A stretch of DNA of 64,000 nt from Chloroflexota bacterium (GCA_014360755.1 JACIWX010000002.1:269988-333987); one strand, 5' to 3'. Positions 4,074 through 43,832 are shown, counted from the first letter of the stretch. Notes: generated by a model not told the origin, from the sequence alone. Translations and numbers: made by a program.

Positions 4074-4142
4074 ATATGGTCGGCTAGTTGGTTAGTCTGT
4101 TGGTTGTTTCAGCGGTTATCCGGAAAGAAGCAGAGGAAATCT

Positions 4143-9587: not shown

Positions 9588-11474
9588 TTAGCCAGCACCG
9601 CCCCCACCGCCTCCGCCGCCACCGCCACCCCCGCCTCCACCTCCACTCCAGCCACCACTCCGGCCACCACTACCCGAGCTACGTGGCGCGCTAGCCAATG
9701 TGCTGGAGGCAGAATTCAGCATACTGAAGAGGCCATCGCTCATGCTCTGTAAGGAGGACATCATGCTGTCACTGGCGCCTTGCAGGGACGGCAGCCCTGT
9801 TCCCCCTTTGCCCATGTCTGGTAGACCCTGTCCTACCTCAGAAGGCTGGCTGGCCCTTCCACCCCTGTAGACAACCACAGGGCGATAGGGATGATACCAG
9901 GTTGGTCCTGGTGCGTCTACCTTGGCAAATCTAGCTACCCACTCCCGTTCTAGTCCAAAGACAATGGCATATGCCAAATACTTTTCAAAAATTTCCTTCG
10001 CTTGCGCGAGATCGGTATATTTTTCAATGTCTTTCAAGTAGCGTTGAAAGGCACGCCAACTGGCTGCAGCCTGTGCTCCTTTCTCTGTCTTCCGTGGCAT
10101 GACCTGTGCCAGGATAATCAGGATAGGGCCAACCAGGAAGATACCAAGACCGGGACAGAATGCCGTATCAGCGTAGGTGTGCAAAAACATGCCTGCAAAA
10201 ATGGCAAGCAGGATTCCCCCCGCAAGCAAAACTCCACCCAAGGCTACATATAGGCTCCGCGTCTTCTCCGGACTGCGCGGGAAAAGCCCCTCTTTCACCA
10301 CTTCTTTGTACATCTGCGCTGTGATCTCGGGCAAAGCAGAGTAGAACTTGTTCTTGAGCTCAGAAAGACGTACCTGTCGCCTCCGACCACGGAAAAGGCG
10401 ACGAAGCAGAGTGCGCTCATAGGAGCGCAGGCTGCCATCATCCGTTAGCAATTCAAAAATAAAGTCCCGTCGCTTGCCAATCCCCAGGAAACCCGGCTCC
10501 TCTTCTTCTGTGATGCTAATGACACCCCGGTGCGCCAGATCCACAATCGTAGCGACGATGTCTTTCATATCTGCCTTTTCGTCTACGAGCACACCTACCA
10601 AACCGGGCGGAAGTTCCGATGGGGGTTCTGGCAAATAGTCAGCGACCACTCCAACGGGGACATCACGCCCCCTCGTGTACCAGACCAGATATAGGCCAAC
10701 AGCGCCTGCGATGAGGATCAAGAGCCCCAGCACAGCGAAAACAAGGTTCACTAGGCTCCGGTAGCGTTCATTGTAGGCAACGAGGCGATCCTCTGCGATT
10801 TGCCAAGAGGGTGGCTGCCCTTGGACAATGCCATGAGGAAACTGCACCCGCACCTCAACTTCCTGGCCTGGCCAAATGTCACGGGCAGTGAAAACGATGG
10901 TATTGCCATCTATGATTTCGTACTCCGCGTCTGCGCCATAGGAGGCTACCTTCAGTTCCTCGCGTGAAATGCTACCAGGCAAATGCACCGTTATCCGCGC
11001 GGAGCGCACTACAAAATCCCTGTCGGGGAAAATGGCTTTCCACCAGAGCTGATCGCCACCTTCGTAGAAACGCAGTCCCCCTTTGACGGTATAGGCGATC
11101 GTAAAGGTACGTGCAGCATTGCTAGTGTAAGGGTAATACCAGGTAATGCGGAAATCCCCATCCTGGCGGGAGGTGGTAAATGTACCAGGCACCTCCTCGC
11201 CGGGGCGGTATTCCACCCCCTCTTCGCTCACGCTCACATCAGTAACCGATTCTAGGCGATTCATCGGAATGTTCCGATAAGCAAAGTGAAAACTCCCGCT
11301 CGTGAAAACAAACTTCTGGGTCTCCACCACGCGGATGTCCGAGTTCGCCAGGACAGTGATATCCACATTGATGAAATCCCAATAGTATTGCTTGCTCTGC
11401 GCAGAAACTGTATAGCCAATGGCGAGAAGCACAATACCAATGACGAGCCAACCAAACCATTTCTTTAACGACAT
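9588..11474 (-). CDS. DUF2207-family multi-pass membrane protein with the canonical Gly-rich C-terminal tail.
   Basis: N-terminal signal/TM. DUF2207-like N-domain FINVDITVLANSDIRVVETQKFVF. Several TM segments. The tail reads SGGWSGGGGGGGGGGGGGGGGAG. Confidence 0.8.
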   Translation of the reverse strand: MSLKKWFGWLVIGIVLLAIGYTVSAQSKQYYWDFINVDITVLANSDIRVVETQKFVFTSGSFHFAYRNIPMNRLESVTDVSVSEEGVEYRPGEEVPGTFTTSRQDGDFRITWYYPYTSNAARTFTIAYTVKGGLRFYEGGDQLWWKAIFPDRDFVVRSARITVHLPGSISREELKVASYGADAEYEIIDGNTIVFTARDIWPGQEVEVRVQFPHGIVQGQPPSWQIAEDRLVAYNERYRSLVNLVFAVLGLLILIAGAVGLYLVWYTRGRDVPVGVVADYLPEPPSELPPGLVGVLVDEKADMKDIVATIVDLAHRGVISITEEEEPGFLGIGKRRDFIFELLTDDGSLRSYERTLLRRLFRGRRRQVRLSELKNKFYSALPEITAQMYKEVVKEGLFPRSPEKTRSLYVALGGVLLAGGILLAIFAGMFLHTYADTAFCPGLGIFLVGPILIILAQVMPRKTEKGAQAAASWRAFQRYLKDIEKYTDLAQAKEIFEKYLAYAIVFGLEREWVARFAKVDAPGPTWYHPYRPVVVYRGGRASQPSEVGQGLPDMGKGGTGLPSLQGASDSMMSSLQSMSDGLFSMLNSASSTLASAPRSSGSGGRSGGWSGGGGGGGGGGGGGGGGAG

Positions 11475-11507
11475 CTTCGCTCCTTCCCCGCTCGCAAAGC
11501 CACAGCC

Positions 11508-11927
11508 TTATGCCCCAGTCCGCTTGGCTTCTACCCGCTGTTTGAATTTCGTCACATCAATGATCATACGCTCGTGGATGCCTTCGCCGATCTTCTCCCG
11601 CTCATCGAAAGCCTCCACCTGAAAAGTGAGCTTGCGGCCATCCACTGCGAGTAATTTTGCCTGGGCGCGCACGGTCATGCCCAAAGGCGTGGCAGCCAGA
11701 TGGCGCACATCCACTCGGATACCCACTGTACGGTATCCATCTGGCAATAGGTGGTCTACAGCACGCACAGCAGCCCCTTCCATCAGGCGCACCATCTCGG
11801 GCGTGGCGAGCACAGAAACATTGCCACTGCCCAAATGCTTGGCTGTGTTTTCTACCGCCACTTTCATCTCGCGTTCACCGACCAGGCCAGGTACTATTTG
11901 CTCGAACACTATCCCCTCCCAATACAA
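11508..11927 (-). CDS. Hotdog-fold thioesterase family protein.
   Basis: 139 aa. GSGNVSVLATPEMVRLMEGAA motif typical of 4HBT/FlK-like thioesterases. Confidence 0.6.
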   Translation of the reverse strand: MYWEGIVFEQIVPGLVGEREMKVAVENTAKHLGSGNVSVLATPEMVRLMEGAAVRAVDHLLPDGYRTVGIRVDVRHLAATPLGMTVRAQAKLLAVDGRKLTFQVEAFDEREKIGEGIHERMIIDVTKFKQRVEAKRTGA

Positions 11928-11944
11928 ACATGCCGGATCCTGAT

Positions 11945-11985
11945 CTAAACATCAGCACCCGGCATGGAAAAATCCGTCTCAGCAC
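11945..11985 (-). terminator. Nested palindromic hairpin downstream of ftsH.
   Basis: CATGCCGG...CTGATctaaacATCAG...CCGGCATG inverted repeats. Confidence 0.4.
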
Positions 11986-12020
11986 GCGTCGGGGGACTGC
12001 CCTCATCCCACCGCAATTTG

Positions 12021-13898
12021 CTAGGCAAGCAACGCCTGGAGTTCTGGACCCTCAATGGTCTCCACCTCAATGAGACGCTTGGCCAGTCTTTCCAACTTTT
12101 CGCGGTTTTCCTTCAGGATATTCATCGCGCGTTGATAAGCGGTCTCGATAATGCGCTTGACCTCCGCATCAATGAGTCGCGCGACTTCCTCGCTATAGTC
12201 CCTCTGCTCTGCGATCTCCCGGCCTAGGAAGATCAGCTCTTCCTTTTGCCCAAAGGTACGCGGACCCAGTACCTCGCTCATGCCGTACTGCGTAACCATC
12301 GCCCGCGCCAGCTTGGTGGCTTGCTCCAGGTCATTGCTGGCACCGGTTGTGATGTCCCCGAACACCAGCTCTTCAGCAGCGCGGCCAGCCAACAACCCGG
12401 TAATTTCGTCCTCAAATTTCGTCTTACTGCGTAGGTAGCGATCGTCCTCGGGCAGATGGATGGTGTAACCCAAAGCCATGCCGCGTGATACAATCGAGAC
12501 TTTGTTCACCGGATCCGCTTTTGGCAGATGGTGCATGACTAACGCATGACCAGCCTCATGGTGTGCGACGATATTTTTCTCCTCTGCACTAATCAGGCGG
12601 CTCTTTCGTTCCGGCCCGGCAACAACGCGCTCCACCGCTTCCTTAAATTCATCCATGCCGATAACCTTTTTGTTGCGCCGTGCAGCCAAAATCGCTGCCT
12701 CGTTGACCAGGTTTTCGATATCCGCACCCGAGAAGCCCGGCGTCTGCCTGGCCAGTTCCATCAAATCTACATCTTCAGCCAATGGCTTGCCACGCACGTG
12801 CACTTCCAAGATTGCCTTGCGCCCGTTCATATCAGGCCGATCAAGCACAACACGCCGGTCAAAGCGGCCGGGCCGCAGCAGTGCAGGGTCGAGGATGTCC
12901 GGACGGTTTGTCGCCGCCATGACAATGACCTGCGTATCGGTGTCGAAACCATCCATCTCCACGAGAATCTGGTTCAGCGTCTGTTCGCGCTCATCGTGAC
13001 TGCCGCCCAAGCCAGCACCCCGGTGCCGCCCAACAGCGTCAATCTCATCTACAAAGACAATGCATGGGCTATTCCGCTTTGCCTGGTCAAAGAGGTCGCG
13101 CACGCGGCTGGCACCAACGCCTACGAACATTTCAACGAATTCCGAGCCGCTGATGCTGAAGAAAGGCACGCCAGCCTCGCCTGCCACCGCCCGTGCGAGC
13201 AGCGTCTTGCCTGTCCCTGGCGCGCCCACCAGTAAGACACCCTTCGGGATACGTGCTCCCAGCATGGTGAACTTGGCTGGCTCCTTCAAGAATTCGACCA
13301 CTTCCTGGAGTTCCTGCTTGGCTTCGTCAACGCCCGCCACATCCTGGAAAGTAACCGTAGGCTTGTCTCCGGTGAACAGGCGCGCACGGCTTTTGCCAAA
13401 AGACAATGCCTGGTTGTTCCCACTCTGGGCTTGGCGCAACATGAGAAGTAGAATCAGCCCCAGCCCCAGCAGGGGCACATAGTTCACCAGCATGGGAACA
13501 ATATCCACCCAAGCGCTGGGCTTTTCTGGCACGATTTCCACCGCCGCAAATTCTTCCGGCGTTACCCCCAGGCTGGTCAGGGTCTCCGTAAGGCTAACCC
13601 CGGGTTCCTTGCGCGAGCGCAATTTGGCCGGTTGCTGCCCCTCATTCATCCAGATGGTCAAGTCATCACCTGAAATACTGATTTTCTTCACCGCACCGGC
13701 TTTCACATAGCTAGCTACCTTGTTGATAGACACCGAAGGGAGTTCTTCAGCCGGCACGACGAAGTTGAAATAGATCAAGGCGATGACCGCCAGCGTGATC
13801 AACAGATATACAAATCCGTTCTTCGACCAACTCGATCCCACTATACCTCCTAAAAACCGCAAAAAGCCGCCCGAAGCGGCACGACGGTACACAAACAT
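12021..13898 (-). CDS. ftsH: ATP-dependent zinc metalloprotease FtsH.
   Basis: AAA motifs [11 protein letters not shown] and [15 protein letters not shown] zinc site. N-terminal TM pair. Confidence 0.95.
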
Positions 13899-13916
13899 TG
13901 ATTCAGGCTACCCCTG

Positions 13917-13989
13917 TGGGCCCACCTGGATTCGAACCAGGGACGACCCGGTTATGAGCCGGGGGCTCTAACCACTGAGCTATGGGCCC
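13917..13989 (-). tRNA. tRNA-Met (CAU).
   Basis: Reverse complement GGGCCCATAGCTCAGTGGTTAGAGC...CTCATAACC...GGTTCGAATCC folds as a cloverleaf with anticodon CAT. Confidence 0.8.
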
Positions 13990-13994
13990 TTCAG

Positions 13995-14066
13995 AGCGGG
14001 TGACGGGACTCGAACCCGTGACAACCTACTTGGAAGGCAGGGGCTCTACCATCTGAGCTACACCCG
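13995..14066 (-). tRNA. tRNA-Gly (UCC).
   Basis: Reverse complement GCGGGTGTAGCTCAGATGGTAGAGC...CTTCCAA...GGTTCGAGTCC with anticodon TCC. Confidence 0.8.
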
Positions 14067-14102
14067 CATGGCCAGGCACCGCAGAACCCGTGCCTGGTGC
14101 TG

Positions 14103-14175
<73 letters not shown>

Positions 14176-14256
14176 CGTTATATTATTATAACCAATTTAT
14201 GGGGTCTCGTCAATTTGGACAGGTAACGAGTGCCAAGTGACGAGTGAACTACGCGA

Positions 14257-14775
14257 CTAGGTCTTGCGGTCAAAGTAGATGCTCTTACCTGTTGCTGACA
14301 AGGGGATACCCATGACATAATCCGCATCAATAAGCCCCATTTCGCGCGCCACAACACCTGCGCGGTACATGATGCGGTTATCCACATTCAGCATCGCAGC
14401 CGTTTTGACCGCCGAACCCAAAGCAATCCCCATATCCAGCAGGCGAAAAGCGCATTGTGGCCCCCGGAACTCGCCCTCGAGAGTATTTGGAACGATGCAT
14501 TTCTCGGCACCGCAGGCGCTGCAATTCAGCCCCATCGCCTTGGCATCTTTGATCCCAATCAATACCACAACCGGCGAATCTTTGACATTCTGCCCATCTC
14601 GGTCAAAGTTGCGCTTACCGGTCCGCTCTCCAAAGCGGATCATCGCTTCGCCCAACTCTCGGCAGGCTTCGCCCTCGATGATCTTCGTTACCACAAAATC
14701 TTGCCCTGCTGATTTGGGCGCCGTACGCGCGGCGATGCACATCAACTCTGCTACGGTACGCAAGCCACTAGACAT
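14257..14775 (-). CDS. Conserved hypothetical Cys-containing protein (DUF2148-like?).
   Basis: 172 aa. CSACGAEKC motif. No clear family signature beyond that. Confidence 0.45.
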   Translation of the reverse strand: MSSGLRTVAELMCIAARTAPKSAGQDFVVTKIIEGEACRELGEAMIRFGERTGKRNFDRDGQNVKDSPVVVLIGIKDAKAMGLNCSACGAEKCIVPNTLEGEFRGPQCAFRLLDMGIALGSAVKTAAMLNVDNRIMYRAGVVAREMGLIDADYVMGIPLSATGKSIYFDRKT

Positions 14776-14905
14776 GATGATTCCATTCTCCTCCCCAGGA
14801 AGTCAACACATTGCACTGGCTTTGTCGTGTTCGCCATTCAACAAAAGGCTTATAGCCTCCCATAGCCAAAGGCATGCAGGCTATGCCCCATACTAGGGAG
14901 CACAC

Positions 14906-15586
14906 CTAGACAATGGCCTCGGTCTCGGTCGTCGGCACGGAGGGCATTGCCCTGGAACGATACACCTGTCCAAGCAAATGGCTGCCAACCAGCGTAGCCC
15001 AGAACTCGGTAAAGATCACGCCAATGCAACACAGGATCGTGCCAAAGCCAGCGACAAATTGGGCTACGATGGCGAGGAGCACGGCAATGATATAGTTGCC
15101 GAGGTTAGCCTGGATGTATTGGAAAATGTCCCCAAAGCGGAAGAAAGCGCCAAAATCGCCGCTGAGGGCATAATGAGTATATGCCGAGGGCAATACCAGA
15201 CCCAGGAACAAGCCGTAAAGCGCGGAGAGACAACTCATACTCCAAATACACAAAACAATTGGCGCAGCGACGCGCCCAGGCTCTGCCGTGTCATACCCAG
15301 TGACGGCACTGACAAATGCTGCAAACATTGCCAACGCGATCAGTGGGATAGCCCAAATCAGCGCTCCCAGCGTGCTCATAAGCCCTTTGACAAAGTAATC
15401 CCCAAAGTCATCCCAGCCAGGCAAAGGTTGCTCAGCACCTTCTGCCACATTCTTCAGAACCCGCAATGCGTAGCCAACCACAGCCAGGTTAACAATGGGA
15501 ATGAGGCCCAAAATGCCACCGATAAGCACCTTGGTGACCCATTCCTTGTCATCGAAAACGTATGTAAATGATTTGCCCCAATCCAT
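14906..15586 (-). CDS. DUF4013-family integral membrane protein. Start revised to the Met after AGGAGG.
   Basis: MDWGKSFTYVFDDKEWVTKVLIGGILGLIPIVNLAVVGYALRV matches the DUF4013 N-terminal signature. Multiple TM helices. Confidence 0.6.
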   Translation of the reverse strand: MDWGKSFTYVFDDKEWVTKVLIGGILGLIPIVNLAVVGYALRVLKNVAEGAEQPLPGWDDFGDYFVKGLMSTLGALIWAIPLIALAMFAAFVSAVTGYDTAEPGRVAAPIVLCIWSMSCLSALYGLFLGLVLPSAYTHYALSGDFGAFFRFGDIFQYIQANLGNYIIAVLLAIVAQFVAGFGTILCCIGVIFTEFWATLVGSHLLGQVYRSRAMPSVPTTETEAIV

Positions 15587-15741
15587 ATTCCCGCCTCCTT
15601 GATGTAGTAGCAAATCGGTTGCAACCAGGAAAGACCTCGCAGGATAGCATACCTCACCTCCATGTGGTCTGAGCCTGGCGCCTGTCGATGCCCGAGATAA
15701 TTATAGCACAGAAGCGGATAATCAGCAAGCACAGCGATTGA

Positions 15742-31381: not shown

Positions 31382-32608
31382 ATGGAGGAAATGATGAGCA
31401 ACATTTTGATAATAGCTGCCATAACTGCTTTAATGTTTGTCGTAGGTATCCTCCTAGGGATTTTTTTTGGATACCCGTTCTTGGGGGCAATAACGGGCCT
31501 ACTAGCAGGCTTATCATTAAGTGCTTATTGGATAACGAGACGCCGCCGCTGGCTTGCTACTATAATTCTGCTCACGCTATTTGCACTAGCCTATGTCACA
31601 GGTGGTTGGTTGGGAACTATGTACGCTGCTGCAGTTAGTGGGCTTACGCTTTTCACTTCTGCTGCAATCCTGCGCGAATTCTATGGAGGCAATGAATTCG
31701 AAGCCTTTTTTCATCATCTACGCCTTCTGGTAGGTTTCATTCGGGGAATTCAGGTAATAGCGGATGGATCAATTGTTGCGCCTAGCGCCTCTCGATCAGA
31801 GCTAGGTCCATTCCTTATAGTCGTGGGTCCTGAGAATGCCATAATTATGCAACGTGGTCCGCAGCAAACGCGTATCTCAGGACCCGCAGTATTCACAAGC
31901 GCGCCGTTCGAATACGTGAAACGGGTATATGATTTACGTCCCCGGCAAAAAACTTTTACCTTTCAAGATGTCTTGACAAGCGATCTAATGGCCACAACAG
32001 TGACGGTTTCTGTTACTTATGGCATCAAGATACCTCCACGGATTAGACACGGTCAGGCATCATGGACAGATGCAGAGACACGTGTAATTGAGCGGATAGA
32101 TTCCTGGATGACAGACTGGGAGACACGCACAGCAGAAACGATCGAAGGGAGTGTAAGGCAAGCTGTAGGAAGGCTGGACCTGGCAACATTGCTGACACCT
32201 GGATACTTTGCTGATCTGGCTAGACAGATCCAAATCTTGGCAATTCGTACCCTGCGTCCTTGGGGTGTGAACATCCACCAAGTAATCGTTAGCAGCGTAC
32301 AGCCCGCGAATGGGGTCAAGACAGCTACAACGAATCGTTGGATCGCCAGTGCTGAGCTACAAACGACCATTACTATTGAACGCGCAAGGGCTTTAGCCTG
32401 GAAGGAGGCATTGTTGCTTCTGGCGGACGGCTATGCAATAGCCAAACAAAAGGGAATGTCAGAAGAGTCCATTCATAGGGAAGTGTTGCGTCGTACACTT
32501 GAGCAAATTGCGAAAGACCCTGCTACAAAGATAATCTTCACCCCCGAACTAAATAGCGCGCTTGCTGGACTATTTCGTTCCATAGGATTAATTTCAGACG
32601 CAAGCTAA
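31382..32608 (+). CDS. Membrane protein with an SPFH (band-7/flotillin-like) domain. First gene of the low-GC island.
   Basis: Three to four N-terminal TM helices, then an SPFH-like core (IVVGPENAIIMQRGPQ...FTFQDVLTSDLMATTVTVSVTYGI). AT-rich codon usage. Confidence 0.55.
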   Translation: MEEMMSNILIIAAITALMFVVGILLGIFFGYPFLGAITGLLAGLSLSAYWITRRRRWLATIILLTLFALAYVTGGWLGTMYAAAVSGLTLFTSAAILREFYGGNEFEAFFHHLRLLVGFIRGIQVIADGSIVAPSASRSELGPFLIVVGPENAIIMQRGPQQTRISGPAVFTSAPFEYVKRVYDLRPRQKTFTFQDVLTSDLMATTVTVSVTYGIKIPPRIRHGQASWTDAETRVIERIDSWMTDWETRTAETIEGSVRQAVGRLDLATLLTPGYFADLARQIQILAIRTLRPWGVNIHQVIVSSVQPANGVKTATTNRWIASAELQTTITIERARALAWKEALLLLADGYAIAKQKGMSEESIHREVLRRTLEQIAKDPATKIIFTPELNSALAGLFRSIGLISDAS

Positions 32609-32650
32609 GGGAAAGATATGGGGTTCGAATGATGCTATTTGCGCTAAAGA

Positions 32651-32896
32651 TTAACGCGTTGTCTCAATATCTATTGCATGTGATTCCAAAGCAGATTGGG
32701 CCGGCTGCGAATCCAAGACAACACCAAATGCTGTGGCCACGGCTTGCATGGCAGCACTAAAACCCGCTCGATATATGGCCACTTGTGTAATTGGTAAGTT
32801 TATCGCCAAAGAAGCGTTCGCTTTGTCAATGGCTTGAAGAATCTGCTGAATATCTTGTTTCAAGAATACTTCTGACTGAATTCGAAATAGGCTCAT
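32651..32896 (-). CDS. Small hypothetical protein (81 aa), divergent from the 33179 operon.
   Basis: ORF only. No motif. Confidence 0.3.
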   Translation of the reverse strand: MSLFRIQSEVFLKQDIQQILQAIDKANASLAINLPITQVAIYRAGFSAAMQAVATAFGVVLDSQPAQSALESHAIDIETTR

Positions 32897-33029
32897 GCTT
32901 ATTCACCTTTTGCAGAACTCATTTTGATGAGGAGTAATCTCCCTGTCCGTTAAGATATTGGAACATTTGTTCTAATACTAGCACAGAATTTGCTTAATGT
33001 CAAATGTGCTATCCATTGTATCCCAGTTT

Positions 33030-33062
33030 TTGACAGTTTTTCAGTTTTGTATAAACTATATA
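33030..33062 (+). promoter_or_regulatory. Sigma-70-like promoter (TTGACA ... TATAAA) ahead of the island operon.
   Basis: Read directly from the sequence. Confidence 0.35.
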
Positions 33063-33178
33063 TCGTTACTGAAGGAGAGTACAATACCTTGAGTAGCGGG
33101 CCTTGAAGGATTGAAACTCGTTCGCGGGATCGGTCTCTTGTTATCAAGATTATTTGCTAGTCTGTTATAGGCCGAAAT

Positions 33179-33568
33179 ATGGGCGGAATTTACGAAATCT
33201 TTCGTGAGGCATTGCCTGAAATCATTGCTGGGCTAGTCGTTGCAGCTATCCTTGCCCTTGTTGGTGTGGCGGTGCGTAAGCGTGCTAATAAGGTTGCCTC
33301 ATCCCATCAAAATGTACCCCCTTCTAGTCCACTCCCCTGTACAAAGCCCCAATCGAAGAAGAAAGAGAACGCAGAGTTGCTTGACCTAAAGCACCGTCGG
33401 CTGCATGAGCTCCAAAAGAAAAAAGCCCTTATGGGCATCAATACTCCACCCGAAGTGATGATCGAGATTGAGGAACTGGAGAAAGACATCCACGAGCTTG
33501 AAAGGATAGACCGCAATGGTTATGGGCGAAACGGGGAGCGAAGCACAAGAGCTCAAGGAGCTCATTGA
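33179..33568 (+). CDS. Small membrane-anchored protein carrying a copy of the shared ~50-aa helical module.
   Basis: N-terminal TM helix. C-terminal ELLDLKHRRLHELQKKKALMGINTPPEVMIEIEELEKDIHELE is homologous to the N-termini of the next two proteins. Overlaps the next gene by ~50 nt in another frame. Confidence 0.45.
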   Translation: MGGIYEIFREALPEIIAGLVVAAILALVGVAVRKRANKVASSHQNVPPSSPLPCTKPQSKKKENAELLDLKHRRLHELQKKKALMGINTPPEVMIEIEELEKDIHELERIDRNGYGRNGERSTRAQGAH

Positions 33569-35063
33569 GGCCTATCGCCGGCGGCTTCACAAGCTGCGTG
33601 TGCGTGTGGCTCTGATGGGCATAGATGCGCGGCCCGAGGATTTGATTGAGATCGAGGACATTGAAAAAAAACTCGCCGAGCTAGAAGAACAACTGAACCA
33701 TTTCGCAGCCATTCCGGTAGCGGGATGGAAAGTACCGGCAAAGGAGTTAGAGGGTCTCAGATACAAGCTAGACCGGCGCATTGGGGTCCTGGAGGCTTCC
33801 CTTCAGTATCTTACTGTTAGTTTACGCTTCTCGCCACGAGGAAAAGATAAGTATGAGGTCCTCTTGCAATCGGAAGTGGGCGATGTGGCCGATGAATTTG
33901 TCTTGCCCTTTACGGCTGATGAGGTTTTTCGTTTCAAATCCGAGGTGGAGAGGGCTATCCTGGCTCGTGGTAGCGGTTTCCGAGGGCAACTGCCTTCGGC
34001 TATGGAACGCCTCAAGGAGTTCGGCCTCAAGTTGTATAAAGGACTCCCCGAAGCTGTACGAGAGCGTTATCAGGCAGCTCGGGATAAGGCCGTTGCCGAG
34101 GGATATACTGGTGTGCGCTTGCGTTTGAATTTGACTGACTCACGTCTGGCAGCTGTCCCATGGGAGTTCCTATACGACCTCAAACGAGGAGAATTCCTCG
34201 GTCTCTCCGGGCAGACCCTTCTAGTGCGCTATGCCGAACTTCCTTACCCTCCTACACTGGGCCTTCACCCTCCTTTGAAGGTTCTGGTAGTAGCTCCTAA
34301 CCCAAGGGATTTGCCCCCTTTAGATGCGGAACAGGAGCACCAACGTGTTGAAGGGGCCTTGAAGGACCTGGAGGAAGCCGGACTGATTACTATCTATTGG
34401 TTAGGCTTGCCAAAACGACCTATCTCGCTGCAGACCCTGCATGATGCTTTATTCGCCTTTCGACCCCACCTGCTTCACTTTATTGGCCACGGCACGTTCG
34501 ATGAACAGCGCGGTGAGGGGGCTCTCTTTTTCGAGGACGAGAAGACTTTGCGAAAGGAACCGGTGAGCAGTTGGCGACTGGCCCAGTTGGCCACCAGTTC
34601 TGAGAGTTTGCGCCTGGTCTTTTTGAACGCTTGCAAAGGAGCCAAGACCTCGGAGGTTGAGAAACTGAGTAGCTTGGCTGCATCTTTGGCGCAGAAAGGC
34701 ATCCCGGCGGTTATTGGGATGCAGTTTACGGTCACTGACGAGGCAGCCATCGAGTTCTCCAGCAAATTCTACCAGCGGCTGGCCGAGGGGGCACCAGTCG
34801 ATGCCGCTGTGCAGGAGGGGCGTATCCATCTAGGAGTGGTGAGGGACAATCCTATGGAGTGGGCGGTACCGGTGCTTTACCTTCTGCCTAGCGACGGGAA
34901 ACTTTTTCAGATCTCAATGCTAGGAAAGGACAATGATGACAAAGAGCGTCTAGCCCGATTAATGATGGACATTGCAAGGGCTGCATGCGGCGCGGGCGTT
35001 CAGCTAGATTCTATGTTTTTTACAAAAATTATAGAGATTTTAGGCAGATGTCCTGAAAAATAA
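33516..35063 (+). CDS. CHAT-domain (caspase-like) protease with the N-terminal shared helical module.
   Basis: N-terminal ELKELIEAYRRRLHKLRVRVALMGIDARPEDLIEIEDIEKKLAELE. C-terminal caspase-like His/Cys dyad LLHFIGHGTF and LVFLNACKGA. CHAT-like block KVLVVAPNP. Confidence 0.7.
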   Translation: MVMGETGSEAQELKELIEAYRRRLHKLRVRVALMGIDARPEDLIEIEDIEKKLAELEEQLNHFAAIPVAGWKVPAKELEGLRYKLDRRIGVLEASLQYLTVSLRFSPRGKDKYEVLLQSEVGDVADEFVLPFTADEVFRFKSEVERAILARGSGFRGQLPSAMERLKEFGLKLYKGLPEAVRERYQAARDKAVAEGYTGVRLRLNLTDSRLAAVPWEFLYDLKRGEFLGLSGQTLLVRYAELPYPPTLGLHPPLKVLVVAPNPRDLPPLDAEQEHQRVEGALKDLEEAGLITIYWLGLPKRPISLQTLHDALFAFRPHLLHFIGHGTFDEQRGEGALFFEDEKTLRKEPVSSWRLAQLATSSESLRLVFLNACKGAKTSEVEKLSSLAASLAQKGIPAVIGMQFTVTDEAAIEFSSKFYQRLAEGAPVDAAVQEGRIHLGVVRDNPMEWAVPVLYLLPSDGKLFQISMLGKDNDDKERLARLMMDIARAACGAGVQLDSMFFTKIIEILGRCPEK

Positions 35064-35219
35064 CCCGTGTGCAACAGTGTACAGGTACTAGATCTAAATC
35101 TCATATTATACAAGGACTAAGGGCACATCAACTATAGAAGATAAAACCTCCTAACTGGACTCCTATAATTATCCTAACTTTTGCTCTTTGACCCTTGTCA
35201 AGGAAAGAGAGGACTGTAT

Positions 35220-36902
35220 ATGAGCGCAAATCAAAAGCCAGGGGAAGCAGAGCTAAAGAATTTGCAAGAGCTCATCGAAGCCCATAGGAAACGGCTACAC
35301 AAACTTCGTGTGCGCGTAGCTTTGCAAGGCATAGATGCCAAGCCTGAGGACTTAATTGAGGTCGAAAATATAGAGCGCCAACTCTCCGAGCTTGAGCGGA
35401 AAAAACAGATCCTCTATGAAACGATAAGCGGCCTGAGTAAAGATGAAATAAGCAAGGATACCACCGAGATAAAAGATTCATTAGCCACCCTTGAAGGGAA
35501 AATAGAGAACCTTGACAAGAGAACCTCCGAGCGAGGGGTGGGTTTCACCAATAGGCAATATGAATTGGATCAAATTCTTAGTCCTTTCAGCAAGCCGTTT
35601 ATTATCATTGATGCTCCCGCCAGCTATGGGAAGACCTACTTGCTTAGAGCTGTGGAGCGCAAGCTGCAGTCTGAGAGAAGAGAAGTGTGGATTTGCCGTT
35701 CAGTTGATTGCTATAGGTTTAACGATAAAACAGGGATTATGACGGAAATCACTGGCAGTACTGTGAATGACGTGAACAATCTCCTCCCATTGGTTGATAG
35801 GGCTATGGAAACTGCCAGGGCCAATGGCTTAATGTTACTCTTTGATTCCATTGAGCATCTTGACGATAAAGTTTCTCACTGGCTGAAGAAAAACCTAATA
35901 CCAGCGCTAAATAATTCCTCATCAAACAGGGGTCGCAAGTTTAGAGCTCTCTTCGCTGGCCGGTACGTTGGAACCTGGGAAGATGGTTTAGGTTTACCTC
36001 ATCTCACCTTAAGCCTCACACCCTTTAGCAAAAAGGTTGTACAAGCATTTGTTCAGGAAGTAGGAAAGCAATTACATTTTCACTGGTCTGATAGAGATCT
36101 CGACGTCTTTGTTGAAGAACTGCTTGATATAACGGGTGGGTATCCCAAGGCCATTGTGGACATAGTGGAACATCTGGGGGATGAGCAAAAATTCGACATG
36201 ATCCTAGATAGAGAGAGCCCTGACTACTATTTCCAGCTCAGTAGGAAGAAAGATTTCTATAACAGATTTGTCCGCGGAGAGATCCCAAAGATCCTACAGG
36301 AGGTCGATCTCGCCCTGCAAAGGGCATTTGAGGTCGTCAGCGTGTTCCGTGCTTTCAACGCGGATACTCTGAACGCTCTTATTATGAAAAGGCACATACG
36401 GGAGTGGAGCAATGGCTGGGAGCTCTTTGAGGCTATGCAAAAAAACCGCTTGATAGAGGAAAAAGCAAGGCATCCTCTTGCCTGCGACAAAATCCTCCAG
36501 CGTGTTCTGGCAGCCAAAATGAGATTTGAGGATCCTTCTCGCTATGAGGGGCTTCAGCATTTCGCTGTCGCCCTATACGATCGCTGGATTCAGGGATTGA
36601 AGTACCCAGACGGTGAGTTGCCCAATCCACCTACCGGGTCTGATCAAATAACTTTTATAATAGAAGCACTCTACCACTATCTTCATACAACTCAGGACGA
36701 AAGAGATATTTTGGGAAAGCTGGACAGTTACCTCAACTGGCTAAGATCCCCTTTTGACCCCCGTAGCGCGGCGCGAGCCTTGAAACGAGGCGTCGAGGAG
36801 GACGAACAGCTGCCGGGGATGCTTAAAAGAGCTATTGGAGATAACGGGTATGACAACTTTCTCAAACATATAGATCGCTTCGGGGAGGAGGGAAAGCGAT
36901 GA
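35220..36902 (+). CDS. STAND-type P-loop NTPase with the N-terminal shared helical module.
   Basis: N-terminal ELKNLQELIEAHRKRLHKLRVRVALQGIDAKPEDLIEVENIERQLSELE. Walker A DAPASYGKTYLL. Walker B LMLLFDS. GYPKAIV (GxP) motif. Confidence 0.65.
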   Translation: MSANQKPGEAELKNLQELIEAHRKRLHKLRVRVALQGIDAKPEDLIEVENIERQLSELERKKQILYETISGLSKDEISKDTTEIKDSLATLEGKIENLDKRTSERGVGFTNRQYELDQILSPFSKPFIIIDAPASYGKTYLLRAVERKLQSERREVWICRSVDCYRFNDKTGIMTEITGSTVNDVNNLLPLVDRAMETARANGLMLLFDSIEHLDDKVSHWLKKNLIPALNNSSSNRGRKFRALFAGRYVGTWEDGLGLPHLTLSLTPFSKKVVQAFVQEVGKQLHFHWSDRDLDVFVEELLDITGGYPKAIVDIVEHLGDEQKFDMILDRESPDYYFQLSRKKDFYNRFVRGEIPKILQEVDLALQRAFEVVSVFRAFNADTLNALIMKRHIREWSNGWELFEAMQKNRLIEEKARHPLACDKILQRVLAAKMRFEDPSRYEGLQHFAVALYDRWIQGLKYPDGELPNPPTGSDQITFIIEALYHYLHTTQDERDILGKLDSYLNWLRSPFDPRSAARALKRGVEEDEQLPGMLKRAIGDNGYDNFLKHIDRFGEEGKR

Positions 36903-39720: not shown

Positions 39721-40851
39721 ATGATCCAAACTAATATTTCATCTCCATTCAAGGGAACACTTTCACAACAATTATTTACGGAAATCGATAGGCAATGCGA
39801 TTGTGCATGTCTCGAACCAGATCTGTTCATTTCCTGTCTCCCTGCCCATCCGATTTTCTGCTACGTTGAAGTTACCCCTGTTTGTAATAATCTTTGCCTT
39901 GGGTGCGGAAACATTTTCAGGGCCGATAGAACCTCGCCACCGCTTTCATCCGCAGAATGGCAAACTGTTTTGACTAGCTTACAACCTTTTGTTCATTATC
40001 TCAAACTCACTGGGGGCGAACCGACGCTGCACCCAGAGTTCGAAACCATTATCCGAACAGTTCAGGAAAAAGACATCCCCTTCGCGCTTTTCACCAACGC
40101 CAGATGGAATGCCCCAGAACGACTCATCGCGCTTCTGCAAAGTACCACACAATGTAGAGGCTTGCTTGTTTCTTTGCATGGCGCAACGGCTGCTTCTCAT
40201 GATGCTTTTACGGGAGTTATGGGCTCTTTTAGTGACACTTGCAGCAATATCAAACGAGCCGCCTTCGCTGGCCTGGATGTCAGAACGAGCACTGTCATCA
40301 CCAAATATAACTGGCAAGAGATCGACACAATCGCCACTCTAAGTCAGAGCTTAGGGGCTCACTGTGCTGTATTCAACCGCTACATAGGGCCTCCTTTGCC
40401 CGAGCTAGAACCTAGCAAAGAACAATTGCAGCATGCAATTGGAGTAATCGAATATATGAGGCGGAACCTAACAAATAACCAACAATCAATGGTCGAATTC
40501 GGAAATCATATTCCTTATTGCCTCTATCCTTCCTCTTCTGCTGCTTGCCTTGCAGGGATCGCTTATTGCACTGTTGACCCCTGGGGCAATGTGCGGCCTT
40601 GTAATCATGCTCCACTGATCTGTGGCAATTTACTAGTGCAGTCACTGGAGGAGATATGGCGTTCGGAGACAATGGAAGCATGGCGAAAAATGATCCCTAT
40701 GGAGTGCGCTGGGTGCGCATTATACCAGACTTGCCATGGAGGGTGTCGAGCTGAGGTGATGCTACGTAACGCCTCTAATTATTACTCACTAACCAACAAA
40801 TCACACCGGTCTACGCTGCCTACCGAAGCAAGAGTACTTCAAATTGGATAA
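39721..40851 (+). CDS. Radical SAM/SPASM-domain protein with no N-terminal RRE, last gene of the island operon.
   Basis: CNNLCLGC CX3CX2C cluster. LTGGEPTL. C-terminal SPASM Cys cluster CTVDPWGNVRPC...CAGCALYQTCHGGC. 5-nt gap after the STAND-TPR gene. Confidence 0.8.
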   Translation: MIQTNISSPFKGTLSQQLFTEIDRQCDCACLEPDLFISCLPAHPIFCYVEVTPVCNNLCLGCGNIFRADRTSPPLSSAEWQTVLTSLQPFVHYLKLTGGEPTLHPEFETIIRTVQEKDIPFALFTNARWNAPERLIALLQSTTQCRGLLVSLHGATAASHDAFTGVMGSFSDTCSNIKRAAFAGLDVRTSTVITKYNWQEIDTIATLSQSLGAHCAVFNRYIGPPLPELEPSKEQLQHAIGVIEYMRRNLTNNQQSMVEFGNHIPYCLYPSSSAACLAGIAYCTVDPWGNVRPCNHAPLICGNLLVQSLEEIWRSETMEAWRKMIPMECAGCALYQTCHGGCRAEVMLRNASNYYSLTNKSHRSTLPTEARVLQIG

Positions 40852-41384
40852 GGTTTGTAGCCAAAATGTTTCTTCTTAGTTATAGGGAACATTTTCACCT
40901 TCATCTCAAGACAGCGACACTCCAAAAATTCTTCTATCCGTTACGTGCGGTTTGATAATCTGTGAAAAGCCTTCAGCAAGTCATTGCATGTTGACAAACA
41001 TAAGCACAGTAAATCACCGGGATAGAAAATGTGCTAAATTTTTTCATCCACAGCTCGATAATGACACGCATCCGGCTGCTTGTTGAGCAAAGCGGAAAAG
41101 GAACTACGCTAGACGTAACTTGAGCATCCCACCCACGCAAGCTGGCCCGGGCTATGTGCTATAGGTAAGCCACAACGGTGTGCAATATGTGCCACAGGGC
41201 TACTCTGCAATTGAGCAAAAATGTGTGCCTAAACCCCCTACGGATACAGTGGCCAAACTGAACAGATGCACTTATTGGCAAAACAATGTTGGCATGCACA
41301 GCGTAGCATGCCTGCCAAAGCCTCTTGAACCAGAGCAGGTGTAAAATTAGATAACATAATACCCCGGAGCCAAATTCCCTACAT

Positions 41385-41753: not shown

Positions 41754-41819
41754 GCTTGTCCCCCTTTCGGATAAGTGCTGTAACTTTGGCAAAGTATACT
41801 GGATAAAAGGTGAAATAAC

Positions 41820-41995
41820 AAATGGTAAGTGATGAGTGATGAGTGATAAGTGAGGAGTGAGAAATACTGCGTATTGCGTGTTCCGTTTTTTACTCAGCAC
41901 TCCTCACTCGTTACTCATCACTCATCACTCCTCACTCGTTACTCATCACTCATCACTCGTTACTCATCACTCATTACTCCTCACTTACAACCGCT
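41820..41995. repeat. Heptanucleotide tandem-repeat palindrome. About 5 GAGTGAT/GAGTGAG units on one arm and about 13 TCACTCA/TTACTCA/TCACTCC units on the other.
   Basis: Read directly from the sequence. The arms are reverse complements around a ~33-nt loop. It lies between the uvrC 3' end and the start of the next gene. Confidence 0.8.
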
Positions 41996-43832
41996 CTTTG
42001 ATGCGTTCAGCCGCCTCCCTGGTTATGCCTTTTACGGCAGCCAATTCCTCTACAGAAGCCTCGCGGATCGCTTCCAGCGAGCCAAAATGCTTCAGCAATG
42101 CCTGACGACGTTTGGGACCCACGCCTGGTATCTGGTCCAGGGTGGAAGCCAGTCCGCTCCGTTCGCGCAGCCGGCGGTGGTAGCCGATGGCAAAGCGGTG
42201 CGCCTCGTCACGCACCCGCTGCAGCAGATACAAGGCTTCGGAATCGCGTGGCAGCAGGAGGGGGTCGGACCGTCCAGGGACAAACACTTCCTCGCGCTGC
42301 TTAGCCAGCCCGATGGCTGGGATGTTTCCCACCCCCATCTCACCCATGACCCCCAATGCGGCGCGCAACTGCCCCTTGCCCCCATCCACGATCACCAGGT
42401 CTGGCATTACGCCCCAGCCACCTTCTTCCTCAGAGACCTGCTTTTGTTCCACAGCCTGGCTTTTGGCCCTTTTGAACCGCCTTCGCAGCACTTCTTGCAG
42501 CATGGCATAGTCATCCGCCCCGCTCACTGTTTTGATGCGGAAACGGCGGTACTCGCTTTTGCGTGGCACGCCCTTGACAAAAACTACCATGCTGCCTGTA
42601 GCGGATGTACCTTGGATATTGGAGATGTCGTAGCATTCGATGCGCGTTGGGGCTTGTGCCAAATGCAGGTATTTCTGCAACTCATCCAACGCCGTAACCT
42701 GCCGTGCCTGATCCGCTGCCCATTGTGCACGCAGATGCGCGAGGGTCTCGGCAGCATTTTCGGCTGCCATCTGCACCAACGCGCGCCCTTTGCCGCGGCG
42801 CGGCACACGGATCGCCACCCTTGTCCCACGCTTCTGACGCAGCCACTCTTCAATGACCTGTGCTTCTTCTATATCGTGCTGCAGCAGGATGGTCGGAGGG
42901 ATGTACGCCGCTTCATCATAGAACTGCTTGACAAAGGAAGTCATGACCTCCAGGTCATCTTCATCCTGCGTGCCGGTGAGGATAAAATACTCCCGTCCGA
43001 TCAGCTTGCCCCCGCGGATGAAAAAGGTCTGCACGCAAGCCTGGCCATCCTCACGCGCGAAAGCAATGACGTCCTCGTCGCTGCGGGTTGCCGACACGAT
43101 CTTCTGTCGCTCGACCACCCTTTGCAACGCCTGCACTTGATCGCGCAAAACCGCCGCGCGTTCAAAATCCAATGCCTCTGCGGCTTTCTGCATCTCCTGC
43201 TCTAAATCGTGGATGATGCGCTCTTGCTTGCCTTCCAAGAAGAGGACAATCTGTTCAATCAACGCACGGTAATCCTCGCGCGAGATGGCGCCAATGCACG
43301 GCCCGGCGCAGCGGCCAATGTGGTAGTACAAGCAGGCTCGCTGATCCTTGCCCGTTATCTCGCGTTTGCAGGTCAGATAGGGGAAGAGCTTACGCAGCAA
43401 CTCCATAGTCTGCTGCACTGCTTTGGCTGAGGTGTAAGGCCCAAAATAGCGCGCACCGTCGTCCTGCATGTGGCGCACGGTGTAAATACGAGGGAATGGC
43501 TCCTGCAGACTGATTTTGATGTACGGATAGCGCTTGTCGTCCTTGAGCCGCACATTGTAGCGCGGGCGGTATTTCTTGATGAGATTGCATTCGAGGATAA
43601 GCGCTTCCAGTTCCGAACCGGTAACGATAAAGTCAAAATCGGCGATGTGATCCACCAGCCGGCGTATCTTGGGAGTTTGGCCATTGTAGGCATGAAAATA
43701 GGAACGCACGCGGTTGCGCAGATTGACTGCCTTGCCCACGTAAATGACCTGGCCCGCAGCATCTTTCATCAAGTATACGCCCGGCTTGGTCGGCAACGAA
43801 TTGAGACGCTCTTGCAGAAGTGCTTGCTCCAT
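41985..43832 (-). CDS. uvrC: Excinuclease ABC subunit C (UvrC).
   Basis: N-terminal GIY-YIG (GVYLMKDAAGQVIYVGKAVNLRNRVRSYF). UvrBC-interaction and RNase H-like/HhH C-terminus. 615 aa. Confidence 0.95.
   Translation of the reverse strand: MEQALLQERLNSLPTKPGVYLMKDAAGQVIYVGKAVNLRNRVRSYFHAYNGQTPKIRRLVDHIADFDFIVTGSELEALILECNLIKKYRPRYNVRLKDDKRYPYIKISLQEPFPRIYTVRHMQDDGARYFGPYTSAKAVQQTMELLRKLFPYLTCKREITGKDQRACLYYHIGRCAGPCIGAISREDYRALIEQIVLFLEGKQERIIHDLEQEMQKAAEALDFERAAVLRDQVQALQRVVERQKIVSATRSDEDVIAFAREDGQACVQTFFIRGGKLIGREYFILTGTQDEDDLEVMTSFVKQFYDEAAYIPPTILLQHDIEEAQVIEEWLRQKRGTRVAIRVPRRGKGRALVQMAAENAAETLAHLRAQWAADQARQVTALDELQKYLHLAQAPTRIECYDISNIQGTSATGSMVVFVKGVPRKSEYRRFRIKTVSGADDYAMLQEVLRRRFKRAKSQAVEQKQVSEEEGGWGVMPDLVIVDGGKGQLRAALGVMGEMGVGNIPAIGLAKQREEVFVPGRSDPLLLPRDSEALYLLQRVRDEAHRFAIGYHRRLRERSGLASTLDQIPGVGPKRRQALLKHFGSLEAIREASVEELAAVKGITREAAERIKERL

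Follow-up and report, generated by a model that had tools for sequence, protein, structure and literature searches.

Gene organization of the island

We analyzed a stretch of 64,000 nt from a Chloroflexota bacterium (GCA_014360755.1 JACIWX010000002.1:269988-333987), in the following referred to as the window. Between about 31.0 and 41.4 kb the window contains an island of low GC content (0.478 compared to 0.552 and 0.535 in the flanks), bordered by genes for a pfkB-family kinase and uvrC, in which genes for a Band_7 protein, a 129-aa protein, a CHAT protease, a 573-aa NTPase and a STAND NTPase with tetratricopeptide repeats (STAND-TPR) are followed by a gene for a radical S-adenosylmethionine (SAM) enzyme with a SPASM domain (rSAM, 39721-40851). 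The open reading frame (ORF) of the STAND-TPR ends at position 39715, which leaves a gap of 5 nt to the ATG of the rSAM. An earlier note on this DNA had described the rSAM as an enzyme with an unusual CDCAC motif and without an obvious precursor peptide. Here we present evidence suggesting that the motif is the core of a precursor fused to the enzyme and most likely the substrate of the latter, and that the rSAM belongs, as conserved third gene, to a bacterial NLR-like operon of the immune type that is widespread and undescribed.

The radical SAM/SPASM enzyme

The window rSAM was matched in Pfam by Radical_SAM (PF04055) with 56.8 bits (cutoff 29.5) and by SPASM (PF13186) with 36.5 bits (cutoff 21.5), while TIGR04085 reached 45.9 (cutoff 27). 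These scores and the ORF itself bear out the gene and its close spacing to the STAND-TPR as first described. The cluster motif is formed by C55, C59 and C62, and the SPASM motif reads C329-x2-C332-x5-C338-x3-C342, with further cysteines at positions 267, 276 and 294 (Table 1). By its CX3CX2C motif, the PF04055 match and fold matches to rSAM structures (E = 1e-15) the protein belongs to the radical SAM superfamily, and by the CX2CX5CX3C motif, the upstream cysteines and models above cutoff to the SPASM subfamily. In a model made with AlphaFold2 (predicted local distance difference test score, pLDDT, of 86.6) the best folds in the PDB were the peptide maturases SuiB, SkfB and PqqE. The Cys clusters and the lack of a PqqD-like domain noted earlier were confirmed by the translation, by Pfam and NCBIfam and by the model: no such domain was found at either end, the C-terminus lying 34 aa past the SPASM motif, and no stand-alone gene for a recognition element (RRE) of peptides made by the ribosome and modified after translation (RiPPs) was seen in the island with Pfam. 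The window protein thus lacks the PqqD-like RRE, fused or in trans, of an RRE-dependent RiPP maturase.

An identical protein in a Chloroflexi metagenome-assembled genome is annotated as ‘radical SAM protein’. We found at least 1038 homologs of this enzyme, in the following called lineage 1, at E <= 1e-5, with identities of 36-71%. Most of their hosts are Anaerolineae/Chloroflexota, others being Candidatus Electrothrix, Pirellulales, Cytophagia and UASB270. When the peptide described below, the rSAM and the adaptors were compared with NCBIfam, Pfam and PADLOC, no family cutoff was reached beyond generic domains.

The best NCBIfam matches of the window rSAM were AhbD (106, cutoff 500), MftC (89, cutoff 265) and PqqE (87, cutoff 381), and structures of anaerobic sulfatase-maturating enzymes (anSMEs) were also among the fold matches, as one would expect if the gene coded for an anSME or another housekeeping SPASM enzyme, of the heme, PQQ or mycofactocin pathway, that came to lie beside the island by chance. 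However, the scores are far below the cutoffs, no sulfatase, heme, pqq or mft genes occur nearby, and the linkage to the STAND-TPR is conserved across phyla. We therefore give next to no credence to a housekeeping enzyme. Membership in the AhbD, PqqE and MftC families was rejected on scores and context, and membership in the anSMEs was rejected as TIGR03942 was outside the best 25 NCBIfam matches and a sulfatase turned up neither in the window nor in any of 26 related loci. The sulfatase neighbour that the earlier note had named as a counter-indication was not encountered in our context survey: the closest homologs lie in a STAND-TPR context and never beside a sulfatase.

A further alternative is that the rSAM, like viperin, makes a small-molecule or nucleotide signal or an antiviral compound which activates or complements the STAND NTPases. 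PADLOC gave weak pVip matches (36.9 and 30.4 bits), and viperin structures were found among the fold matches at ranks 15 and lower. These pVip matches, however, span only the generic rSAM core (aa 50-200), a full SPASM domain is present, the best folds are those of peptide maturases, and homologs with an RRE stand next to precursor peptides. A viperin-like role is for these reasons very improbable, and we rejected pVip membership on the core-only matches and the SPASM domain.

The QCDCAC motif as a probable fused precursor core

The CDCAC motif ahead of the cluster deserved the attention it had been given: its cysteines lie between C26 and C30, 25 residues before the cluster, and form a core that recurs in related loci. 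In the window protein the motif is part of an N-terminal tail (IDRQCDCACLEP). As the ORF has no alternative in-frame start, this tail must be translated. In the family alignment a subset of the proteins has an N-terminal (D)CDCAC, and many, not including the window protein, have an additional C-terminus of about 80 aa.

The surveyed loci, numbered with the prefix L, allowed the origin of the tail to be examined. In L003 the rSAM has no motif, and a separate ORF in another frame, overlapping the rSAM start, ends with ...AYQAECACDCACA-stop. ORFs of 55-75 aa between the STAND-TPR and the rSAM recur across the surveyed genome and metagenome loci, and the motif forms the end of free upstream ORFs in L003, L009, L013, L017-L019 and others. 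The last residues before the stop codon are, for example, ECACDCACA, DSDCACT, DSDCACE, DNDCACE, LDCDCACLGRK, QCNCACK, DADCACE, DDNQCACE and QCDCDCACDC. Common to the free peptides is a leader element, LxLxLF, located 30-40 residues ahead of the core. In-frame fusions to the enzyme occur in the window, in L001, L002, L006, L014 and L016 and in a large clade whose members start with MGDCAC, and the L018 peptide is attached C-terminally to a GNAT acetyltransferase. Judged from these sequences, CDCAC and the core at the C-terminus of the free precursor-like ORFs are homologous. An encoded precursor with leader and core beside the enzyme, as in a RiPP system, is thus found as a free peptide elsewhere and as a fused core here, and the statement that there is no obvious precursor peptide has to be revised, since the precursor is fused to the enzyme. 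A precursor hidden in the spacer downstream of the rSAM, as previously considered, was not recovered: our small-ORF search of 40852-41384 and 32609-33178 gave no ORF with a C-terminal Cys motif or an LxLxLF leader.

Fusion of the core and loss of the RRE

We next considered the C-terminal extension present in most homologs. It was predicted with a pLDDT of 92 to consist of four strands followed by three helices. Among the top 13 PDB folds for this extension were PbtF-RRE (best, TM-score of 0.70), TruD, LynD, PqqD, ThcOx, McbB and MccB, which are RREs or enzymes containing one. A sequence profile of the extension compared to the whole PDB gave PqqD only, with weak values (E = 0.37 and 0.68), and there was no Pfam match. 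The predicted fold confirms the assignment of the extension in most homologs as an RRE.

For the coupling of motif and RRE we classified 117 lineage-1 proteins, scoring the RRE as an RRE-length C-terminal tail. The motif was absent and the tail present in 63 of the 117 proteins, and the motif was fused and the tail absent in 38; both were present in 13 and both absent in 3, two of which look truncated. A fused motif was consequently observed in 38 of the 41 proteins without RRE (Fisher's exact p = 3.5e-16). On a rough neighbour-joining tree we counted about 10 changes per character, and RRE loss was nearly confined to fused backgrounds. In the fused proteins the last Cys of the motif and the first Cys of the cluster are 22-28 aa apart; if the L019 peptide were read through its stop codon, the spacing would be 25. 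From this agreement the fusions look like repeated losses of a stop codon or frame between adjacent genes. It looks as if RRE and leader become dispensable after fusion, the window protein being one such derived form. Its lack of an RRE is then no sign of a non-peptide substrate, because it is the derived state in a family that otherwise has a C-terminal RRE.

A second rSAM lineage with the same motif

Homologs of the window STAND-TPR (29-36% identity) were found in loci in which an NTPase of the SIR2, TIR, CHAT or an unknown type is followed by the STAND-TPR and then by an rSAM. The rSAMs of these loci form a second lineage of about 500 aa that is 23-27% identical to the window enzyme; a STAND-TPR homolog lay upstream of it in 6 of 6 loci. 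The N-terminal part of the lineage-2 rSAMs of L172, L174 and L175 includes ...GQCDCAC..., and in L173 the motif and an RRE-like part make up a separate ORF of 135 aa. From its sequence, lineage 2 seems to carry this RRE-like segment between the N-terminus and the catalytic domain. Lineage 2 comprises at least 3661 proteins (E <= 1e-30). Among the best 120 matches 106 had complete N-termini; 85 of these contained C-x-C, 56 of them exactly CDCAC, and the rest of the 106 mostly had GQCDAC. Two lineage-2 members picked from the rSAM side were located behind an EAD7-NTPase with STAND-TPR and behind a trypsin-NTPase with STAND-TPR, the latter in a gammaproteobacterium. The window STAND-TPR is 34-36% identical to the STAND-TPRs associated with lineage 2 and 22-30% identical to most of those associated with lineage 1. 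Its greater closeness to the former makes it appear that a single system family has swapped its rSAM lineage and kept the motif. We take the recurrence of layout and motif with so distant an rSAM as an independent replicate of the association.

The best curated relatives of lineage 2, all below cutoff, are the PapB, nif11-like, QhpD, DynA and SCIFF maturases (PapB 119-127, cutoff 340; QhpD 94-105, cutoff 453). PapB, QhpD and SCIFF maturases form thioethers from Cys to Asp or Glu, and by analogy these relatives give a hint at thioether chemistry. The PapB, ScfB and QhpD models were absent from the top NCBIfam matches of the window rSAM.

We also asked whether CDCAC might instead be a metal-binding, additional Fe-S-binding or redox-sensing element, the true substrate being another protein of the island (STAND-TPR, second NTPase, adaptor or CHAT). 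The motif is rich in Cys, its distance to the cluster motif is tightly limited (22-28 aa), the MGDCAC clade is devoid of any leader and for several RRE-bearing loci no peptide ORF was found, all of which would suit a ligand. The same motif, however, is located at the extreme C-terminus of free leader-bearing ORFs of 55-75 aa that are paired with RRE enzymes, and the number of cysteines, ranging from 1 to 5, fits repeated substrate sites rather than a fixed ligand set. In lineage 2 the motif is about 110 aa away from the catalytic domain, with the RRE-like segment in between, and the narrow spacing in lineage 1 is explained by an origin from stop-codon loss. We consider a ligand or redox element unlikely and favor the motif as the substrate of the enzyme.

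Linkage to the STAND-TPR and exchange of effectors

By tblastn a STAND-TPR homolog was detected upstream of the rSAM in 21 of 26 lineage-1 loci. Four of the five loci without it have <2 kb of upstream DNA, and among loci with enough upstream DNA the fraction is 21 of 22. This linkage is kept across phyla, and it supports the earlier view of the gene as a genuine, co-oriented part of the NTPase/CHAT island; the rSAM was also retained across syntenic loci, where its absence would have spoken against that view.

Homologs of the second NTPase were found in 11 lineage-1 loci, usually ahead of the STAND-TPR. The N-termini of the partner NTPases differ between loci: none was recognised in L001, SIR2 was found in L002 and L086, TIR in L003, TIR-SIR2 in L088, a bacterial Death-like domain (bDLD1) together with GNAT in L090 and EAD7 in L176, while trypsin or CHAT takes the same position in further homologs. 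In L007, L010 and L070 the order is STAND-TPR, second NTPase and rSAM (8007-9269, 10013-11248 and 10013-11257, respectively), and the RRE is kept. A GNAT acetyltransferase gene recurs in the loci; it is free in L009 (3851-4369) and L070 (4569-5132), is joined to the precursor in L018 (9255-9968), and follows the effector NTPase as a C-terminal fusion in L090 (1538-4504). Beside the three-gene system of L090 we observed a dense conflict island (9740-15629); it codes for an integrase, for KAP-NTPase and NACHT proteins that carry fused FGE-sulfatase domains, and for a bDLD1-EAD7-caspase protein.

In the window, a motif of about 45 aa (RLHKLRVRVAL-GIDA-PEDLIEIE-IE--L-ELE) is common to the 129-aa protein, the CHAT protease and the 573-aa NTPase, and the N-terminus of the CHAT protease is 63% identical to that of the L001 NTPase. 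The N-terminal segment of the 129-aa protein is, by its sequence, a probable transmembrane helix. The core NTPase and separate effectors thus carry the same small adaptor, as in systems coupled by effector-associated domains (EADs). No Pfam EAD model matches this helical adaptor, which is why we regard it as probably an undescribed EAD. The CHAT protease and the 129-aa adaptor protein vary from locus to locus: their place can be taken by SIR2, TIR, trypsin or Death-like domains while CDCAC stays. This argues against these proteins as the substrate, and the suggestion of the earlier note that the enzyme modifies the adaptor or the CHAT protease, or makes a small-molecule signal, found no support.

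The same observations bear on the question whether the locus is an ordinary RiPP natural-product cluster, for an antibiotic or signal peptide, with the STAND-TPR merely as a MalT/LAL-like regulator. A precursor with leader and core, an rSAM/SPASM enzyme with RRE, the TPR_MalT-like repeats and, in some loci, a GNAT gene resembling a tailoring gene would be in agreement with such a cluster. In contrast, no domain of a leader peptidase or exporter was matched among the called genes of the examined loci, the STAND-TPR has no match to a DNA-binding domain in Pfam, and its constant partner NTPase bears SIR2, TIR, trypsin, CHAT, Death-like or EAD domains, which are typical conflict effectors. Furthermore, the core is fused to an enzyme of 40-55 kDa in 51 of the 117 proteins of lineage 1 and, among the best 120 matches of lineage 2, in almost every full-length one. 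This fusion and the lack of protease and exporter genes argue against a secreted product, and a natural-product cluster is quite improbable.

Table 1. Coordinates of the features discussed in the text; positions refer to the window unless a locus number is given
Feature	Position	Strand	Basis and remarks
Radical SAM/SPASM gene, lineage 1	39721..40851	+	ORF, 376 aa, ATG start, no RRE
N-terminal extension aa 1-44, precursor-like tail fused in frame	39721..39852	+	unfused homologs begin ~17 aa ahead of the cluster
QCDCAC core motif, aa 25-30	39793..39810	+	invariant in 7 members of the window clade
CX3CX2C cluster motif, C55/C59/C62	39883..39906	+	translation; invariant across 115 sequences
SPASM auxiliary-cluster Cys, C267 to C342	40519..40746	+	PF13186 and TIGR04085 above cutoff; columns invariant
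STAND NTPase with C-terminal TPR array, 938 aa	36899..39715	+	Pfam ATPase_2/AAA_16 and TPR_12
Second NTPase, 573 aa, N-terminal helical adaptor	35181..36902	+	weak AAA_22; likely start ATG 35220
CHAT (caspase-like) protease with N-terminal helical adaptor	33516..35063	+	PF12770, E = 2e-30; adaptor aa 12-60
129-aa protein, hydrophobic N-terminus and helical adaptor	33179..33568	+	translation; homolog in L001; no Pfam match
Band_7/SPFH protein, recurrent accessory	31382..32608	+	PF01145; also in L001, L002, L086, L175
Spacer 3' of the rSAM	40852..41384	.	ORF list and Rfam: no precursor gene or known RNA; GC 0.45
Lineage-2 rSAMs	L172 10747-12255; L174 10743-12251; L175 6413-7897; L176 8001-9485; L177 6727-8250		N-terminal GQCDCAC or GQCDAC

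Neighbouring sequences in the window

The spacer downstream of the rSAM had been called AT-rich. With a GC content of 45%, compared to 47.8% for the island, it is not specially so, and a scan of it with Rfam and for promoters and terminators gave chance hairpin matches only. Between a small minus-strand ORF and uvrC, at 41816-41999, dense 7-nt repeats (TCACTCA / TTACTCA and their complements) form a long imperfect inverted repeat; because of this heptamer array we regard weak Rfam matches to miRNAs and hairpins as spurious. Adjoining the Band_7 gene lies an ORF of 81 aa on the minus strand (32651-32896) without a family match, which has a 41% identical counterpart in L002 (9558-9797) at the same position and in the same orientation. 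A common integration hot-spot beside pfkB in the window and L176 was considered and rejected, as the kinases are only 29% identical. Another rSAM/SPASM gene of the window (4104-5597, plus strand) codes for a protein of 497 aa, of which about 135 aa form an N-terminal extension, and adjoins the genes for a membrane protein with a TIGR04222 domain and for a coiled-coil protein. It belongs to a different family without CDCAC and is unrelated to the island.

Proposed function

Taken together, our findings suggest that the window rSAM is probably a peptide maturase acting on the QCDCAC motif and an integral part of the STAND-TPR system. In the presumed ancestral form, a free peptide of about 60 aa with an LxLxLF leader and a C-terminal DxDCAC core would be recruited by the C-terminal RRE of the enzyme. 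In the window, the peptide gene would have been fused in frame to that of the enzyme, so that presentation of the substrate could take place in cis or inside an oligomer; the RRE would have been lost. The STAND-TPR NTPase may act as the switch, the second NTPase may carry or recruit the effectors, and the enzyme-peptide unit would be the third constant component. The effectors in the window would be the CHAT protease and the membrane protein, brought in via the common helical adaptor, plus Band_7.

Several observations have to be weighed against this reading. The AhbD, MftC and PqqE families, the best curated matches of the window lineage, form no thioethers. In the AlphaFold2 model the tail, with a helix at residues 10-23, reached only a moderate confidence (pLDDT 64-71), and only some 15 residues form the short linker between C30 and strand beta-1; judged from this model, modification in cis would be geometrically feasible. 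Some peptides have one Cys or variant cores, such as ...SECEV, ...LQCEV and ...ADACR before the stop codon, and no recognisable peptide ORF was found within the examined flanks of the RRE-bearing loci L007, L010, L070 and L021-L024.

The nature and the use of the modification are less certain than the assignment as a maturase. It is conceivable, at somewhat less than an even chance, that the TPR array reads the modified tail as an endogenous ligand and thereby gates the NTP-dependent assembly and the firing of the effectors. Slightly more doubtful, and offered as a tentative proposal, is that the modification would be a crosslink involving Cys, in the likeliest case a thioether to an Asp or Ala close by. 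The furthest-reaching form of the idea we hold to be improbable, namely that an NLR-like receptor pair has, as its built-in ligand or licence, a mark made by the rSAM on a Cys peptide, which may be free or attached to the enzyme. As SAM, reducing power and intact Fe-S clusters are all required for such a mark, the system would be a reporter of the SAM and redox state of the cell. If this were true, it could fire when a SAM-degrading enzyme of a phage or a metabolic takeover halts the modification; an immune receptor would then read a RiPP-type post-translational mark and not a pathogen molecule, and the writing of this mark would have recruited two unrelated rSAM lineages.

The subject joins RiPP enzymology and bacterial immunity. 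For the former, the loci offer what seem to be natural fusions of precursor and radical SAM enzyme, repeatedly arisen with RRE loss, and a Cys/Asp core motif, as yet uncharacterised, that two rSAM lineages serve. For the latter, they suggest a widespread three-gene NLR-like system with peptide modification as a constant component. Both lineages together were found in Chloroflexota, cable bacteria, Planctomycetota, Bacteroidota and Gammaproteobacteria, and the database annotation of the system genes is limited to ‘radical SAM protein’, ‘ATP-binding protein’ or uncharacterised protein. The fused form is directly testable because one purified protein holds both the enzyme and its putative substrate.

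Comparison with known systems

With the maturases SuiB, SkfB, PqqE/PqqD, CteB, PapB and QhpD the enzymes described here share the fold, the three-cluster SPASM architecture and, in most members, the logic of leader and RRE, and with thioether-forming systems a core rich in Cys and Asp. They differ from the RRE-dependent rSAM/SPASM maturases in that the RRE of lineage 1 is C-terminal, whereas the usual one is N-terminal, and the window member has none. They also stand in the context of immune-type NTPases instead of transport and protease genes, and they reached no curated cutoff.

Borosins (OphMA-type) are autocatalytic fusions of a precursor and a methyltransferase, of which split bacterial forms exist; their core is C-terminal and later released as a natural product, and the enzyme is a SAM N-methyltransferase. 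The likeness lies in a core naturally fused to its own modifying enzyme and in the existence of fused and split versions. In contrast to borosins, the enzyme here is a radical SAM protein, the core is N-terminal and no release machinery was seen.

The adaptor-coupling logic of effector-associated domains is set out in section 30 of PMC7159879. As in the EAD and Death-like STAND systems treated by Kaur et al. (2020 and 2021; PMC7159879 and PMC8195603), an effector and the core NTPase of the island carry the same small helical adaptor and effectors are swapped, and the partner NTPases of L090 and L176 bear bDLD1 and EAD7, respectively; the window adaptor differs in matching no Pfam EAD model. 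In term searches of both articles we found no passage on a three-gene layout of this kind with an rSAM, and a search of full-text literature gave no description of the rSAM family, the QCDCAC motif or the three-gene layout.

The view that rSAM/SPASM enzymes are no standard parts of STAND/CHAT systems was too strong, given the constant STAND-TPR partner found here and a published module: section 24 of PMC7159879 (Kaur, Burroughs, Iyer and Aravind 2020) describes a small, fast-diverging peptide with an FxSxx-COOH end that occurs with an rSAM-SPASM enzyme and an AP-ATPase-TPR protein in actinobacterial conflict systems, and for which the role of a signal or toxin is proposed. We did not assign the window system to this module (FxsA/FxsB/FxsC/FxsT of Haft), as FxsB was outside the best 25 matches of the window rSAM and FxsT reached 56.9 (cutoff 300). 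Lineage 2 scored 53-73 with the FxsB model (cutoff 370), and no FxSxx peptide or metallopeptidase was found in the window by Pfam and in the ORF lists. The motif here is DxDCAC and not FxSxx, there is no zincin peptidase and no vWA-MoxR core, the enzyme has a C-terminal RRE or a fused peptide, and a paired second NTPase carries the effectors. On the other hand, the two have in common a conserved C-terminal motif of the peptide, an rSAM-SPASM enzyme, a STAND protein with C-terminal TPRs, effectors that are often of the TIR type and an occurrence in multicellular or filamentous bacteria. The FxSxx-COOH module of peptide, rSAM and AP-ATPase-TPR is thus the closest known analogue of the system described here.

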